A stretch of 64,000 nt of DNA from Promethearchaeota archaeon (GTDB lineage: Archaea; Asgardarchaeota; Lokiarchaeia; Sigyniarchaeales; SOKP01): the NCBI GenBank assembly GCA_029838195.1, contig JALGVJ010000001.1, forward strand, positions 192,001 to 256,000, given 5' to 3'. The notes beneath the pieces are model-generated. The model saw nothing but the letters and a program-made list of their open reading frames with translations, was not told the origin of the DNA and did no database searches. Below are positions 2,170 through 7,599 of the stretch, one piece after another. How positions within the stretch are numbered: position 1 is the first letter of the stretch; every line of letters begins with the position of its first letter. A program made the position numbers and the translations under genes.

Positions 2170-2513
2170 GATTAATGGTCGTAAACAAACTATATCGATA
2201 AAACGTATAAAAACATTTTTTCGTGTGTTTATAATTATAAAAACTTTATCGTTATTTAAAAATCGAGCCTTGAGAATTCTTTAAATTCCTTTTAAATAAA
2301 ATCATTAAAAGATATTAAAAGTATAAAGATTAGATATTATTTCTATTGTTTTTAAGAAGCAATTTAAAAAAATCAAAAAAAATATATTTTCAAGAAGCTT
2401 TTTCATGTTCTTTTCTTAATAAAAGAGTATATTAGGAAAAAATTGAAAGAAAAAAGAATAAAGAAAATTCCGTCGAAAAAAGAGCGTCTAAACGAATTCC
2501 AGAAAAAATACTT

Positions 2514-4001
2514 TTATTTAGTAGCTTTCAACTCTTTTAATATTATTCCAAGAGTAATAATGAAAACGGCCATGGTCGATATAATCCAAATCAATTTATA
2601 GGATTCCAAGCGTATGGAGATGATGGGCGTTTCTAATTCGTAAAATTCATGGGGGGCATTTGTCTTAACCCACGTCACTCCTAAGCACCATAATTCGCAG
2701 AATCTCTCTACTGAATCAATCGTGTATACCATGACGGGAAAATCTTGTTGATAAAAAATTCGATATTCCTCATTCGTGTAGGCGTCTCCTGTATTGATGT
2801 ATTCATATCCCGTTAATACATCCATGGCATCTTTATACATGAGCATGTTCATTATTTTTTCGTTTTTAGTTGGAATCATTATCTTACTTAGATTAATTCC
2901 TGAACGAAGGGTAGTGTCCAAAATGATTTCAAAATACTCGTCGTGATAAGGATGGTCGTTGGAGGGAGATTTCATATCAAAATCGAGATAAATATCGTGA
3001 TTTTTCGTAAATTTCAAAACTTCTGCCAAAGTGGGTATTTTTACACCCCTATATGATTCGGCTTGTTCGGGAGATATGATACCAGCGGCAATGACACCGA
3101 AAGGATCTTTATCCACGAACCAAGAACCTGCATCTAATTGCTTGAGTTCCGAAATGGTGAAATTCTCAGCAGGTTCACTAACTCTATCGGGAAAAACATC
3201 CCGAATATTTGTTGTTCTCGTAAGAGTATCATCGTGCATCAAAAAGGGAACGCCATCCTTGCTGATTTGAATATCCACTTCCCAACCCACGATACCGAAT
3301 TGAAGGGCTACTTCCGCCGCGATAAGAGTGTTTTCTGGGCCTAAAGAAGCCCCTCCTCGATGTGCAATTAAATCTGGTTTTGGAGGCAAATCGCCTTCGT
3401 GGACATTTGCCGGGATATAAAAAAAGGGTGTGGCAAAGGCAAATCCATATCCGATTAAAATACACGTGATTATAATAATGCTCTTTCCTTTGGCACGAAT
3501 GATTTTATTCGAGAGATTGGCTTTTAAATGAGGTATATTTTTAAGAAGAGGGTACACCAATAAAATAAGAATTATCTGTATGGTTAGAAAAATAAAAATG
3601 CTATAAAATTCAAAATATTGAGGAATTAATCGAGAATAGCTTCCTAACTCATCAAGGAGAAAAGAGATGAGAATATTAAAAATTAACATCAAGACGAAAG
3701 GAATGAGCTTATACATCCTTGAAAGGATGAGTTCATTTCCCTTTAGTAATTTCTTGAAACTAAAGATTAAAAATATTAAGGAATAGAGCAACGGTATCGT
3801 GAAGAGAAAATATAAAAATAAGATTAGATTAAAATTAAAACCCCACCAATCAGAGACCGTTGTGTTGATTTCTCCCCAATAAGGTCTTAAAATCCATAAA
3901 AATAACAAAAATACGCCAAAATTAATCACACAAGCAAGATAAATGATAATCCATTTTTTTCCTTTTTTATTTTTTAATTTTTCAATCAGCACGATAAACA
4001 C
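2514..4001 (-). CDS. Membrane glycerophosphodiester phosphodiesterase, GDE2/GDE3/GDE6 (GDPD5/GDPD2/GDPD4)-like six-TM architecture
   Basis: AHRG..PENT, EVD, PFLMHD..L.RTTN GDPD motifs; 5 hydrophobic helices before and 1 after the catalytic domain. The GTG at 4001 lies inside a GAGGTG SD, so the true start may be GTG 3992. Confidence 0.88.
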   Translation of the reverse strand: MFIVLIEKLKNKKGKKWIIIYLACVINFGVFLLFLWILRPYWGEINTTVSDWWGFNFNLILFLYFLFTIPLLYSLIFLIFSFKKLLKGNELILSRMYKLIPFVLMLIFNILISFLLDELGSYSRLIPQYFEFYSIFIFLTIQIILILLVYPLLKNIPHLKANLSNKIIRAKGKSIIIITCILIGYGFAFATPFFYIPANVHEGDLPPKPDLIAHRGGASLGPENTLIAAEVALQFGIVGWEVDIQISKDGVPFLMHDDTLTRTTNIRDVFPDRVSEPAENFTISELKQLDAGSWFVDKDPFGVIAAGIISPEQAESYRGVKIPTLAEVLKFTKNHDIYLDFDMKSPSNDHPYHDEYFEIILDTTLRSGINLSKIMIPTKNEKIMNMLMYKDAMDVLTGYEYINTGDAYTNEEYRIFYQQDFPVMVYTIDSVERFCELWCLGVTWVKTNAPHEFYELETPIISIRLESYKLIWIISTMAVFIITLGIILKELKATK

Positions 4002-4026
4002 CTCTATTTTAATTCATGCGTGTTTT

Positions 4027-6072
4027 TTAATTAAATTTTGTAATGACGGCACAATGATCCGAAGCTATAGAACAATAAACGTGACTCGATTTTGCGTTCA
4101 TGTCAGGGGAACATAGAATATAATCGATTCTTTTTCTCGGGATAAAATTCTCATCAAAATGCCCGGTATAGCCCGCATTGCGTGCAGTATCTATAAAATT
4201 CATGGGTGAAGCTTTAATTAATTGATATTCCTCTGAGGTGGGTTCAAAGTTAAAATCTCCTAACCAGATCAGTTTGTTTTTATCTTTTTCTTGCTCGATC
4301 ACGGAAAGGATATAAGGAACTTGCACCAATCGATCTTGATGGTTCGTAGAGAGATGCGTAATGAATAATGTCCAGATTTCATTGCCGATTATGATTTTTG
4401 CTTTTATCATGGATCTAGGCTCTGTAGATTCTTTAGCTTGGGGGAGATGAATGATCTCAGCGGAACTGATGGGATATTTACTCAATAATGCATTACCATA
4501 ATGCTTGTAAAATGTATAACCATAAAAATAATACATGTCAAGATGATGAGCGAAATAGGAGGTTAAATCAACAAAAGATGTTTTCAAGGCTCCTAAATCT
4601 ACTTCATTCAATCCAAGAATGTCCGGATCGTTTTGTTTGATTTCTTCAGCAATTCTTTCCGGATCAAACACATCATCCACTCCAATTGCATTGTGGATGT
4701 TCCATGTCATTACAATTGGGTGCTCTCTTGGTGTGGATTCCGGAATCCTTTGAATGAGAAGACTCCCAAAAGAACCAATTAAGATAATAAAAATTATCAC
4801 GTATAAAACTTTAATGGGCATTTTCCAGTTCCAATTCAATAATTTTCGATTTAAATTTACCCGTAAATTCTTTCCCTCCATTAGGAAAATGAGGAAAGTC
4901 CCAATTAGCGAAAGGATGAATATATTATTTATCAAGAGAGATAGATATTCATACCACAAGAATTGGACTTGTAAAATGATGAAAAAGAAATTCGTAAAGA
5001 AAAAAATGACCAATCCATGATATAACTTTCTTCTATTCTGAAAAGAATAAAAAATAAAACAGTAGAAAAAGTAAATCACGAGCGAAAAAATATTAACAAT
5101 CTCCAAAATCGTTAAATAAAAGGTCGATACTCCAGGAATTGGCTCATTTTCTAAAATAAAAATCGCTAATAGATTTAAAATAAAAGATGCCCCTATAAAT
5201 GTGAATATTAGCTTTTTTAGAAACGATTGGGACTTAGTATTCATTATTTCATGAATAACATAGCTCCCTATAAATATCACGGCCGTAATGAGGAGAATAT
5301 AATATGTAAATCCATAAGAAATCCAATTTAATTTACCATTCGGAAGCAGATTGTTATAACTACGATCCAACACGTCATATGCCGAAATAGCCATGGGATT
5401 AAAAACCCAAGTTAAAATGAGCAGAAATAAAATTCCGAAAATAATGAAATGAACTAGGGAGATTTCTTGCCCTTTCCTTTCTTCCTTCTCAATGCTCTCC
5501 ATCCCTCGCTCTAGATCTTCTAATTTCTTAGGCGAAAACATGCTCCAATTCATGTACAATAAAAAACCTGAGAAAATAATAATTGGCATGATTTTTATGG
5601 AATCGAACGTCAAACTTAAAGATGCGTTTGCCATTAAAAAAACTAATTGAATACTCGCACCCACGCATCCTCCAAAAAGTAATGTTGAAAAGCCTCCCCC
5701 ATTCGCTCCCAATTCCATCAAATACATTAATTCAATGATGACTAATACAGAACTAAAAAATAAGATAAAATTGAAAATCATGAGTAAGGAAGAAATCATG
5801 AGAAATTGGACCACAATTCGAGAAATTACTACAAGATATATCAAAACATGGATTTTTAATCGAAAATTAAAAAAATTTTTGTAAAAAATCACCAGTTCCA
5901 AGATGATGCTAATAACTATAATAATAATCGTGGGTAAAATCGTGCCGATTCTACTTAAATTCATGAAAACATGTGCATTCGTATTTACCATGATATTGCT
6001 AAACGATTCCATGATGAAATAGAAAAGAATCGCTTGAAATAATAAAATCCGCACTTTTTTTTCCACGATCAT
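4027..6072 (-). CDS. Polytopic membrane protein with C-terminal EEP (endonuclease/exonuclease/phosphatase) domain, Cwh43/PGAP2IP-like
   Basis: About 12 hydrophobic helices, then MTWNIH, DILGLNEVD, YGNALLSKYPI, THL, LGDFN, RIDYI, SDH. Confidence 0.85.
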   Translation of the reverse strand: MIVEKKVRILLFQAILFYFIMESFSNIMVNTNAHVFMNLSRIGTILPTIIIIVISIILELVIFYKNFFNFRLKIHVLIYLVVISRIVVQFLMISSLLMIFNFILFFSSVLVIIELMYLMELGANGGGFSTLLFGGCVGASIQLVFLMANASLSLTFDSIKIMPIIIFSGFLLYMNWSMFSPKKLEDLERGMESIEKEERKGQEISLVHFIIFGILFLLILTWVFNPMAISAYDVLDRSYNNLLPNGKLNWISYGFTYYILLITAVIFIGSYVIHEIMNTKSQSFLKKLIFTFIGASFILNLLAIFILENEPIPGVSTFYLTILEIVNIFSLVIYFFYCFIFYSFQNRRKLYHGLVIFFFTNFFFIILQVQFLWYEYLSLLINNIFILSLIGTFLIFLMEGKNLRVNLNRKLLNWNWKMPIKVLYVIIFIILIGSFGSLLIQRIPESTPREHPIVMTWNIHNAIGVDDVFDPERIAEEIKQNDPDILGLNEVDLGALKTSFVDLTSYFAHHLDMYYFYGYTFYKHYGNALLSKYPISSAEIIHLPQAKESTEPRSMIKAKIIIGNEIWTLFITHLSTNHQDRLVQVPYILSVIEQEKDKNKLIWLGDFNFEPTSEEYQLIKASPMNFIDTARNAGYTGHFDENFIPRKRIDYILCSPDMNAKSSHVYCSIASDHCAVITKFN

Positions 6073-6273: not shown

Positions 6274-6846
6274 ATGATAAAAGTCGTTTTATTTAACGGA
6301 AGCCCAAGAGCTAAAGGAAATACCTTTCAAGCTCTGGAAATCGTACGCAAGGAATTAGAAGCAGAAGGTATTGAATGTGAATACATTTGGCTTGGAAAAG
6401 AACCATTATTGCCCTGTAAGGCTTGTTTTAGATGTGCAGGAAAAAAGAAATGTAGCCAAGAAGATGACAAGTTGAATGAATACGTGAATAAAATAATAGG
6501 AGCGGATGGAATAATTATCGGAAGCCCTACTTATTTTGCCAATGTGTCGTCTACCGTGAAGGCATTTATTGACCGCGCAGGTATGGTTTCCAAAATGAAT
6601 GGAGATCTTTATAAATACAAAGTAGGTGCTGCTGTTGTCGCCGTACGTCGCCAAGGGGCTACCCATGTTTTCTCTAGCATTAATTTTTTCTTCCTAATTG
6701 CCCAAATGGTCGTGGTAGGATCTTCCTATTGGAATTTGGGAATAGGACTTGCGCCGGGAGATATTCAAAAAGATAAGGAAGGTATTGAGACTTTTAAGAA
6801 TCTGGGAGTGAACATGGCATACGTGTTGAAAAAATTGAAGAGTTAA
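6274..6846 (+). CDS. Iron-sulfur flavoprotein (Isf / NADPH-dependent FMN reductase-like family), copy 1
   Basis: GSPR..GNT, Cx2Cx2Cx5C cluster motif, GSPTYF; preceded by SD GAGGTGA. Confidence 0.92.
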   Translation: MIKVVLFNGSPRAKGNTFQALEIVRKELEAEGIECEYIWLGKEPLLPCKACFRCAGKKKCSQEDDKLNEYVNKIIGADGIIIGSPTYFANVSSTVKAFIDRAGMVSKMNGDLYKYKVGAAVVAVRRQGATHVFSSINFFFLIAQMVVVGSSYWNLGIGLAPGDIQKDKEGIETFKNLGVNMAYVLKKLKS

Positions 6847-7023: not shown

Positions 7024-7599
7024 ATGGCTCTAAAAGTAATCCTTTTTAATGGAAGCTCGAGAAAAGAGGGAAATACCTATTATTGTTTAAAAATCGTGAG
7101 TGACGAATTAGAAGCAGAAGGAATCGAAACGGAGCTTATTTGGTTAGGAGAACAGCCAATTCTTCCTTGTAAGGCGTGTTATAATTGTAAAGGTAAAAAA
7201 AAATGTATTCAAGATGATGACAAGTTAAATGAATACATTAAGAAGATTTTACAAGCTGATGGGGTAATTATTGGAAGTCCGACTTATTTCGCTGATGTTT
7301 CATCTACCGTAAAAGCTTTCATCGACCGAGCAGGATTAGTCTCGAGAATGAATGGAGATCTTTATAAACATAAGGTTGGGGCAGCTGTAATTGCCGTCAG
7401 AAGAGCGGGGGCATTGCATGCTTTTTCTTCTATTAATTTTTTCTTTTTAGTGGCGCAAATGATCGTCGTGGGCTCGTCATACTGGAATTTAGGTATTGGA
7501 AGGAAACCAGGCGAAGTATTGAATGATCAAGAGGGCGTGGACACCTTTAGGACTCTTGGAAAGAATTTTAGTCGAGTTCTCAAGAAATTAAATTCATAA
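7024..7599 (+). CDS. Iron-sulfur flavoprotein (Isf family), copy 2
   Basis: Same motifs as 6274..6846 and visibly high identity to it. Confidence 0.92.
   Translation: MALKVILFNGSSRKEGNTYYCLKIVSDELEAEGIETELIWLGEQPILPCKACYNCKGKKKCIQDDDKLNEYIKKILQADGVIIGSPTYFADVSSTVKAFIDRAGLVSRMNGDLYKHKVGAAVIAVRRAGALHAFSSINFFFLVAQMIVVGSSYWNLGIGRKPGEVLNDQEGVDTFRTLGKNFSRVLKKLNS

Follow-up and report, generated by a model that had tools for sequence, protein, structure and literature searches.

Two groups of eukaryotic membrane phosphodiesterases are the closest described counterparts of the gene pair considered here. Cwh43/PGAP2IP functions in the lipid remodelling of glycosylphosphatidylinositol (GPI) anchors, in which diacylglycerol or phosphatidic acid is swapped for ceramide or ceramide-phosphate (PMC4962981), and the GDE2/3/6 group is defined by six membrane helices, a glycerophosphodiester phosphodiesterase (GDPD) ectodomain between helices 5 and 6, and cytoplasmic termini (PMC7033719). 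One cluster of endonuclease/exonuclease/phosphatase (EEP) enzymes holds PGAP2IP/Cwh43, the N-acetylglucosamine phosphodiesterases (GlcNAc-PDases), which take phosphocholine or phosphoethanolamine off GlcNAc-6-phosphate on glycans, and an uncharacterised “Asgard/Chloroflexus group”; the existence of the EEP family in Asgard archaea was noted, though not studied, in the same work (PMC10704324). GPI synthesis and transamidase components have been reported to be Asgard-derived, and an Asgard origin of the GPI pathway has already been proposed (PMC12872458). We analysed a stretch of 64,000 nucleotides from a Promethearchaeota archaeon (contig JALGVJ010000001.1, positions 192,001 to 256,000; hereafter the window), in the first 12 kb of which two co-oriented genes on the minus strand encode a polytopic membrane EEP enzyme (gene A, protein P0001) and a six-helix GDPD enzyme (gene B, protein P0002). 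A preliminary description of the window had named this pair as its best candidate for a new system, a coupled module possibly preceding eukaryotic GPI turnover. We found that the adjacency is a lineage-specific arrangement, not a conserved two-enzyme or GPI-type system, and that the two products are probably independent enzymes of the cell surface.

The distribution of the two gene families carries this result. Among 151 sampled Asgard genomes, the gene A family was present in 7, all of one GTDB family, and the gene B family in 16, which belong to 3 of the 27 GTDB families sampled. Within that same GTDB family (f1), 25 of 121 genomes carry the gene A family, 29 the gene B family and 12 both. 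The two genes are adjacent only in the genus of the window (g1, genomes G000 and G154); in the remaining 10 both-carrying genomes they lie on different contigs, including one assembly of only 10 contigs. In genus g6 the gene A family occurs in 4 of 7 genomes and the gene B family in none of the 7, and no genome of genus g2 carries both families. Examination of 25 Asgard loci centred on the gene A-type EEP, of which 22 had usable downstream flanks, detected no GDPD within 8 kb in any of them by tblastn with P0002, even at E<=10, in a search that recovered the window as its control, and clustering of the open reading frames (ORFs) at these loci revealed no conserved neighbour of any kind. Similarly, none of four GDPD-centred loci (40–59% identity) had an EEP neighbour. 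The only other adjacent cases were L037 (89% identity) and L036 (62% identity); these loci also have the FMN-reductase, PCMT and GH32 genes on their flanks, and their adjacency is ordinary synteny between close relatives. As the genes elsewhere occur and move independently, the adjacency is specific to the lineage, and the pairing put forward as a system in the preliminary description was not found beyond one genus and its close relatives.

The layout of the pair itself is as follows.

4027..6072, minus strand: gene A (P0001), polytopic membrane EEP phosphodiesterase (ORF, translation, Pfam).
3993..4026, minus strand: intergenic spacer with the Shine-Dalgarno sequence GAGGTG at 3999-4004 and no T-tract (direct sequence reading).
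2514..3992, minus strand: gene B (P0002), six-helix ecto-GDPD phosphodiesterase, 492 aa from the GTG at 3992 and 495 aa from 4001 (ORF, translation, Pfam).
2435..2510, minus strand: T-rich tracts past gene B, a probable archaeal terminator region (direct sequence reading).

The gene A ORF comprises 681 codons (4027-6072), and the gene B ORF, in its longest form, 495 (2514-4001). That both encode membrane phosphodiesterases and point the same way, as first described, agrees with the ORFs, the Pfam matches to EEP and GDPD, and the long hydrophobic regions in both products. Since VIA-align comparisons of both structural models place EEP and GDPD in unrelated folds, the pair is not a tandem duplication, in agreement with the preliminary description. 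The first GTG of gene B (4001-3999) overlaps the Shine-Dalgarno sequence GAGGTG (3999-4004). Because this codon sits inside the ribosome-binding site, and an 89%-identical orthologue is arranged alike (GGAGGAGG, 8 nt, GTG and a 492-aa product), gene B likely starts at the next GTG, 3992-3990. The spacer is therefore 34 nt, not the 25 bp given earlier, and the Shine-Dalgarno sequence reported before the second gene stands. The orthologous spacers of L037 and L036 also contain GGAGG-type sites. Several runs of five to six T follow the TAA stop of gene B (2514-2516), at about 2435-2510. As T-rich tracts follow only gene B and the spacer has none, co-transcription of the two genes in this genus is plausible.

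One oddity concerns the gene B orthologue of L036 (L036:10085-10205, plus strand; 62% identity). There GGAGGG precedes ATT ATT TTA GAA and further codons for the conserved N-terminus, at which no ATG, GTG or TTG occurs, and the gene caller began 39 codons later; this could reflect a non-canonical ATT start or an assembly error. Pfam searches of the flanks placed GH32 and PCMT genes downstream of the pair, the GH32 gene being a beta-fructosidase, and two divergent FMN-reductase genes upstream. The latter (6274-6846 and 7024-7599, plus strand) are tandem paralogous NADPH-dependent FMN reductase genes, and one copy is kept beside the gene A orthologues in L036 and L037.

Gene A encodes a catalytic domain behind a long membrane region, with the following parts.

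4849..6072, minus strand: gene A residues 1-408, membrane domain of 12 helices (6+6) with the fold of the major facilitator superfamily (MFS) and no Pfam match (AlphaFold2, VIA-align).
4741..4833, minus strand: gene A residues 414-444, 13th membrane helix, predicted to place the EEP domain outside the cell (AlphaFold2 helix 419-440; hydropathy 414-444).
4030..4728, minus strand: gene A residues 449-681, EEP catalytic domain, predicted to lie outside the cytoplasm, with all catalytic residues intact (VIA-align, conservation).

The C-terminal domain was matched by the general EEP model PF03372 at 83.4 bits and by PF23226 (Exo_endo_phos_PGAP2IP) at 61.3 bits against a cut-off of 27, and PF23226 matched all 30 members of the family examined. 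In exhaustive structural comparison with VIA-align, this domain gave Z 26.5 to both 4ruw and 3g6s, and Z 24.5 and 20.5 to neutral sphingomyelinases (the former to the human enzyme, 8j2f). Eight of its residues, N458, E490, H573, D606, N608, D650, D672 and H673, are invariant across the family. The AlphaFold2 model (mean predicted local distance difference test, pLDDT, 80) comprises six plus six membrane helices with a charged central loop, a 13th helix and the EEP domain. The central loop (residues 173-200) is rich in lysine and arginine, and the loop before the hydropathy segment 414-444 has four K/R and no D/E; this positive-inside charge pattern suggests a cytoplasmic N-terminus and central loop and an EEP domain exposed on the outer side.

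The membrane domain of gene A is related to MFS transporters in structure. VIA-align matched it to SotB (6kki) at Z 20.4, with a root-mean-square deviation of 3.7 A over 324 residues, and 17 further chains, almost all of them MFS transporters, matched residues 1 to about 410 at Z 16.9-19.2. At E<=10, this domain matched no Pfam model, of the MFS or otherwise, either in P0001 or in the 30 family members, and a profile search of PDB sequences gave chance matches only. A HMMER profile of the domain, run against 1.84 billion proteins, returned 18 representatives, all of its own family and none from outside. Full-length homologues numbered 40, were about 680 aa long, and every source name given was an Asgard label. 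A Foldseek search of the PDB, which holds no PGAP2IP structure, returned only soluble EEP chains. In the ESM Atlas fold search, the nearest full-length structural neighbour was a Chloroflexota-dominated cluster (TM 0.76 over 626 residues), and no eukaryotic cluster was returned; this neighbour fits the “Asgard/Chloroflexus group” of EEP enzymes (PMC10704324). The ESM features of the membrane part gave 0.81 to a cluster with PF23021 in 18% of its members, a value below the trusted level and a lead only.

PF23021 is one of three Pfam models that make up PGAP2IP, namely PF23022 (6TM_1st), PF23021 (6TM_2nd) and PF23226 (EEP); this architecture is that of mammalian PGAP2IP (gene CWH43) and of the C-terminal two-thirds of yeast Cwh43. 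A search of the 151 Asgard genomes with PF23021 recovered P0180, a protein of 630 aa (L040:949-2841, plus strand; G111:C285) that matches all three models (42, 83 and 109 bits, respectively), and nine relatives (P0181-P0189). The family spans 550-630 aa, with most members at 623-630, and its four source-named members are labelled Promethearchaeota, Hodarchaeota and Kariarchaeaceae. Alignment of the gene A and P0180 families with hhalign covered only the last helix and the EEP domain (E 4e-30), and the 12-helix region of gene A (profile A2) had no detectable homology to the PF23021-bearing P0180 family (A5), at a probability of 2.3%. As a positive control, the membrane part of P0198, a second fused membrane EEP in the genome of the window (687 aa; G000 contig C92, L038:150-2213, minus strand; PF23226 57 bits), was aligned with A5 at 89% probability (E 2e-6, 316 columns). 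Because membrane homology to PGAP2IP was found in the P0180 family and P0198 and not in gene A, gene A is, judged by sequence, a distant PGAP2IP relative and the less PGAP2IP-like of the two fused membrane EEPs of this genome. The Cwh43-like character first assigned to gene A thus holds for its PGAP2IP-type EEP domain and for the layout of 12 helices with an outward EEP, and not for the membrane domain, to which neither Pfam nor hhalign gave homology. No GDPD neighbour was found beside P0198 or at three P0180-family loci.

Other membrane-associated EEP genes were encountered. The neighbours of P0180-family genes vary, with an alpha/beta-hydrolase at one locus and methyltransferases at two. A split form in the genome of the window (L039:939-3006, plus strand; G000 contig C9) consists of a 421-aa membrane protein, P0197, without Pfam match, whose gene overlaps by 20 nt that of a 273-aa EEP protein (PF23226 64 bits), and an MFS_2 sugar transporter gene comes next; hhalign found no relation of P0197 to the fused-family profiles A2 and A5. 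Another Asgard genome (L041:530-2574, minus strand; G131:C22) has a split form as well, in which a membrane protein of 399 aa (PF23021 27.1 bits) and an EEP protein of 281 aa (PF23226 79 bits) are encoded directly next to each other.

The product of gene B has the following parts.

3414..3959, minus strand: gene B residues 15-196, five N-terminal membrane helices, N-terminus predicted inside the cell (AlphaFold2, hydropathy).
2616..3389, minus strand: gene B residues 205-462, predicted outward-facing GDPD TIM barrel with intact catalytic residues (VIA-align, conservation).
2520..2609, minus strand: gene B residues 465-494, C-terminal sixth membrane helix (AlphaFold2 helix 465-494; hydropathy 467-492).

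Its GDPD domain was matched by PF03009 at 89 bits, and the membrane region had no Pfam match at E<=10. The barrel gave Z 25.0 to 2pz0 and Z 23.9 to Bacillus subtilis GlpQ (5t91) in VIA-align, whose listed matches cover the barrel only; H214, R215, E241, D243, H256 and D342 are invariant in 36 sequences. The N-terminal hydropathy segments (15-41, 54-86, 90-121, 128-159 and 172-196), the K/R-rich loops 1-14 and 160-171, and an acidic GDPD domain (44 D/E against 22 K/R) form a positive-inside pattern, from which we infer that both termini are cytoplasmic and the ectodomain lies outside. The AlphaFold2 model is confident (pLDDT 93) for both the membrane bundle and the catalytic domain. Together with the conservation of two residues of the bundle, W17 and N46, in 90% or more of the sequences, this suggests that the bundle is more than an anchor.

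Gene B belongs to a larger family than gene A, with 597 homologues, and every source name among the 120 listed was Asgard or generic; at least five of these 120 bear the automatic JGI name “glycerophosphoinositol inositolphosphodiesterase”. The nearest ESM-feature clusters were Asgard-dominated (0.98), Chloroflexota-dominated (0.95) and chordate GDPD5 (0.90 and 0.88). Foldseek against the PDB, which contains no six-helix GDE, returned only soluble GlpQ-type chains, and our literature searches on Asgard six-helix GDPDs or Asgard glycerophosphodiester phosphodiesterases found no reports. The GDE2/GDE3-like label of the preliminary description is supported as regards the six-helix topology and the presence of chordate GDPD5 among the nearest ESM neighbours; specific kinship to animal GDE2/3/6 is a lead, drawn from language-model features and source names only. 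At least two genomes of GTDB family f1 hold the six-helix GDPD gene in tandem copies (G071:C42:26525-29720 and G190:C45:3-3034, both minus strand).

The genomic background of inositol lipids was surveyed by domain-profile searches of the window's genome, which is 96.6% complete, together with control genomes. This genome-wide survey, which had been proposed with the preliminary description, recovered two inositol-1-phosphate synthase genes, four CDP-alcohol phosphatidyltransferases and eight members of the broad PIG-L/LmbE family PF02585. The PIG-A-specific domain PF08288 and Gpi8 (PF01650) were not found in this genome; PIG-M (PF05007) gave no match either, but the controls were silent too, so that this search is uninformative on absence. 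Thus, this archaeon makes inositol phosphates and probably inositol lipids, and these searches turned up no indication that GPI cores are assembled or attached to proteins. One of the synthase genes (G000:C23:22379-23874, minus strand) stands beside a 452-aa ORF with a CDP-alcohol phosphatidyltransferase domain. Because of its size, this ORF is possibly bifunctional, of the di-myo-inositol-phosphate synthase type, which would fit the vent and sediment source of the DNA. A 259-aa ORF elsewhere in the genome (G000:C89:84165-84650, minus strand) weakly matches Frag1/DRAM/Sfk1, PF10277 (32.8 bits against a cut-off of 30.3), the family of PGAP2 and of the Cwh43 N-terminus, which was matched in 0 of 14 control genomes.

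We consider it probable that genes A and B encode two independent, outward-facing phosphodiesterases of surface-lipid or glycan head groups, co-transcribed only in this genus. What the analysis shows is which domains the two proteins contain and how these fold, that both active sites are intact, the topology that is predicted, and how the two families are distributed and arranged among genomes. Both enzymes of this Lokiarchaeia-type Asgard archaeon would be metal-dependent and membrane-embedded, and each would cut phosphodiester-linked head groups at the outer membrane surface, the substrates possibly being polar lipids of the archaeon or glycoconjugates, either linked to lipids or part of the surface. 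Gene A would work like a phospholipase C, a sphingomyelinase or a sugar-phosphodiesterase and gene B like a phospholipase D or C, and the membrane domain of each protein would position or present the lipid substrate. Several points weigh against this reading. The lipid or glycan head groups are putative substrates, and the MFS fold of gene A could point to transport instead of lipid presentation. In addition, orthologues that share only 62% protein identity are still adjacent and keep the ribosome-binding site, and 12 genomes of f1 carry both families where 6 would be expected (hypergeometric P = 0.003, without correction for relatedness), so that the two may have some functional link within this lineage. 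The transport alternative would make the pair a nutrient-scavenging unit, in which ecto-phosphodiesterases degrade environmental phosphodiesters, such as glycerophosphodiesters or phosphorylated glycans, and the MFS-fold domain of gene A takes up what is released, for instance glycerol-3-phosphate, phosphocholine or inositol phosphate. In Escherichia coli, glpT, which encodes an MFS transporter, and glpQ, which encodes a GDPD, form an operon, and by analogy with this precedent such a unit may be conceivable here: over all 12 helices, the membrane domain of gene A (residues 1-408) matches functional MFS transporters (Z 16.9-20.4), the gene B GDPD is nearest to bacterial GlpQ-type scavenging enzymes in sequence and structure, and a GH32 beta-fructosidase gene is nearby. 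This account is possible but rather doubtful, as gene A matches no MFS family by sequence, even at E<=10, the pair lacks conservation, and Pfam searches of the genes around it found no phosphate-starvation or uptake genes; moreover, scavenging GDPDs are normally soluble or singly anchored, whereas a conserved six-helix frame around the barrel is characteristic of the lipid-directed GDE2/3/6 (PMC7033719).

The degree of coupling separates the remaining readings. Neutral adjacency would mean unrelated roles for genes that became neighbours by chance in this genus, with read-through lacking functional meaning; it would fit the separate contigs in all 10 other both-carrying genomes, the uneven carriage in g6 (4 of 7 for gene A, 0 of 7 for gene B) and g2 (no overlap), and the lack of a conserved neighbour of either gene in any direction. 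It is nonetheless improbable in view of the 34-nt spacer with its own ribosome-binding site and no terminator-like T-tract, the retention of the pair at 62% identity despite the four genes inserted beside it in L036, and a co-occurrence of the families somewhat above expectation. At the other end stands the coupled module of the preliminary description, which would act on inositol-phosphate glycolipid anchors through Cwh43-like lipid exchange and GDE2/3-like anchor cleavage, as a prokaryotic forerunner of eukaryotic GPI turnover. The PGAP2IP type of the gene A EEP, the GDE2/3/6 topology of gene B with chordate GDPD5 among its nearest ESM neighbours, the JGI names on five members of its family, the tight spacing with a ribosome-binding site, the inositol lipids made plausible by the two synthase and four phosphatidyltransferase genes, and the Asgard-derived GPI synthesis and transamidase components (PMC12872458) would all agree with such a module. 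We regard it as unlikely, since the pairing is absent beyond one genus and its close relatives, the gene A membrane domain has no sequence homology to that of PGAP2IP while the more PGAP2IP-like P0198 and P0180 family are unlinked to a GDPD, the PIG-A-specific domain and Gpi8 were not found in the 96.6%-complete genome (nor was PIG-M, with a silent control), and both families are patchy and narrow among Asgards, with gene A in one GTDB family and gene B in 3 of 27. The preliminary description had itself named a pairing that is not conserved and a lack of membrane-region homology as signs against its proposal; the former was found for the pair and the latter for gene A, and the idea of a GPI-turnover precursor is left unsupported. 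A narrower variant, a genus-specific co-transcribed unit in which the EEP and the GDPD, one cutting like a phospholipase C and the other like a phospholipase D, would act in sequence on one outer-leaflet archaeal lipid linked to inositol phosphate or sugar phosphate or on a lipid-anchored surface protein, seems very improbable. Such a unit would be a working counterpart, in a prokaryote, of the remodelling and shedding of GPI anchors in eukaryotes, to which it might even be related. Two independent surface phosphodiesterases are thus the reading that we prefer.

Had the pair been a conserved module, the origin of GPI-anchor turnover would have become testable in the closest archaeal relatives of eukaryotes. 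The evidence removes that module, and the remaining result is more modest, yet still useful: outward-facing membrane phosphodiesterases whose layouts resemble those of eukaryotes occur in Asgard archaea in several separate families. These are candidates for biochemical study of how archaea turn over their surface lipids and for inclusion in PGAP2IP and GDE2/3/6 phylogenies, and for the evolution of PGAP2IP, proteins of the P0180 type or P0198 are better subjects than gene A. The new element of the locus is the EEP–GDPD pairing, which is lineage-specific.

Compared with known systems, gene A parallels PGAP2IP/Cwh43 in layout: it also has about 12 membrane helices followed by a C-terminal, non-cytoplasmic EEP domain with all catalytic residues, passes the PGAP2IP-specific Pfam model (61 bits against 27), and is of comparable length (about 680 aa; Asgard proteins that have the full PGAP2IP architecture measure 626-630 aa). 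It differs in that neither PF23022 nor PF23021 matches any of the 30 family members (E<=10), and in that the generic PF03372 outscores PF23226 (83 against 61 bits), the reverse of P0180 (PF23226 109 against 69). In addition, gene A has one more helix, the 13th, and lacks an N-terminal domain of the Frag1/PGAP2 type, and no GPI pathway was seen in its host genome. From the characterised GlcNAc-PDases, which are small, secreted proteins of 219-357 aa without membrane segments, gene A differs in being polytopic. With MFS transporters such as SotB (6kki), residues 1-408 share the 6+6 fold and the charged central cytoplasmic loop, but gene A lacks an MFS sequence signature or Pfam match and its membrane domain is fused to an enzyme; our literature search found no work linking CWH43 to the MFS fold.

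The E. coli glpT-glpQ operon, which combines a glycerol-3-phosphate transporter with a periplasmic GDPD, resembles this locus in that the gene of an MFS-fold protein stands beside that of a GDPD acting outside the cytoplasm. Here, however, the MFS-fold protein carries an EEP domain of its own, the GDPD crosses the membrane several times, and the pair is confined to one genus and its close relatives. Gene B, in turn, differs from GDE2, GDE3 and GDE6 (GDPD5, GDPD2 and GDPD4), the animal ecto-phosphodiesterases that cleave GPI anchors, in lacking long cytoplasmic tails, in being nearer to a Chloroflexota-dominated cluster (0.95) than to the animal GDPD5 clusters, and in its host, an archaeon that makes ether lipids. 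It nevertheless agrees with the definition of that group, with six membrane helices, the ectodomain between helices 5 and 6 and both termini predicted to be cytoplasmic (PMC7033719), and its GDPD catalytic residues are intact.

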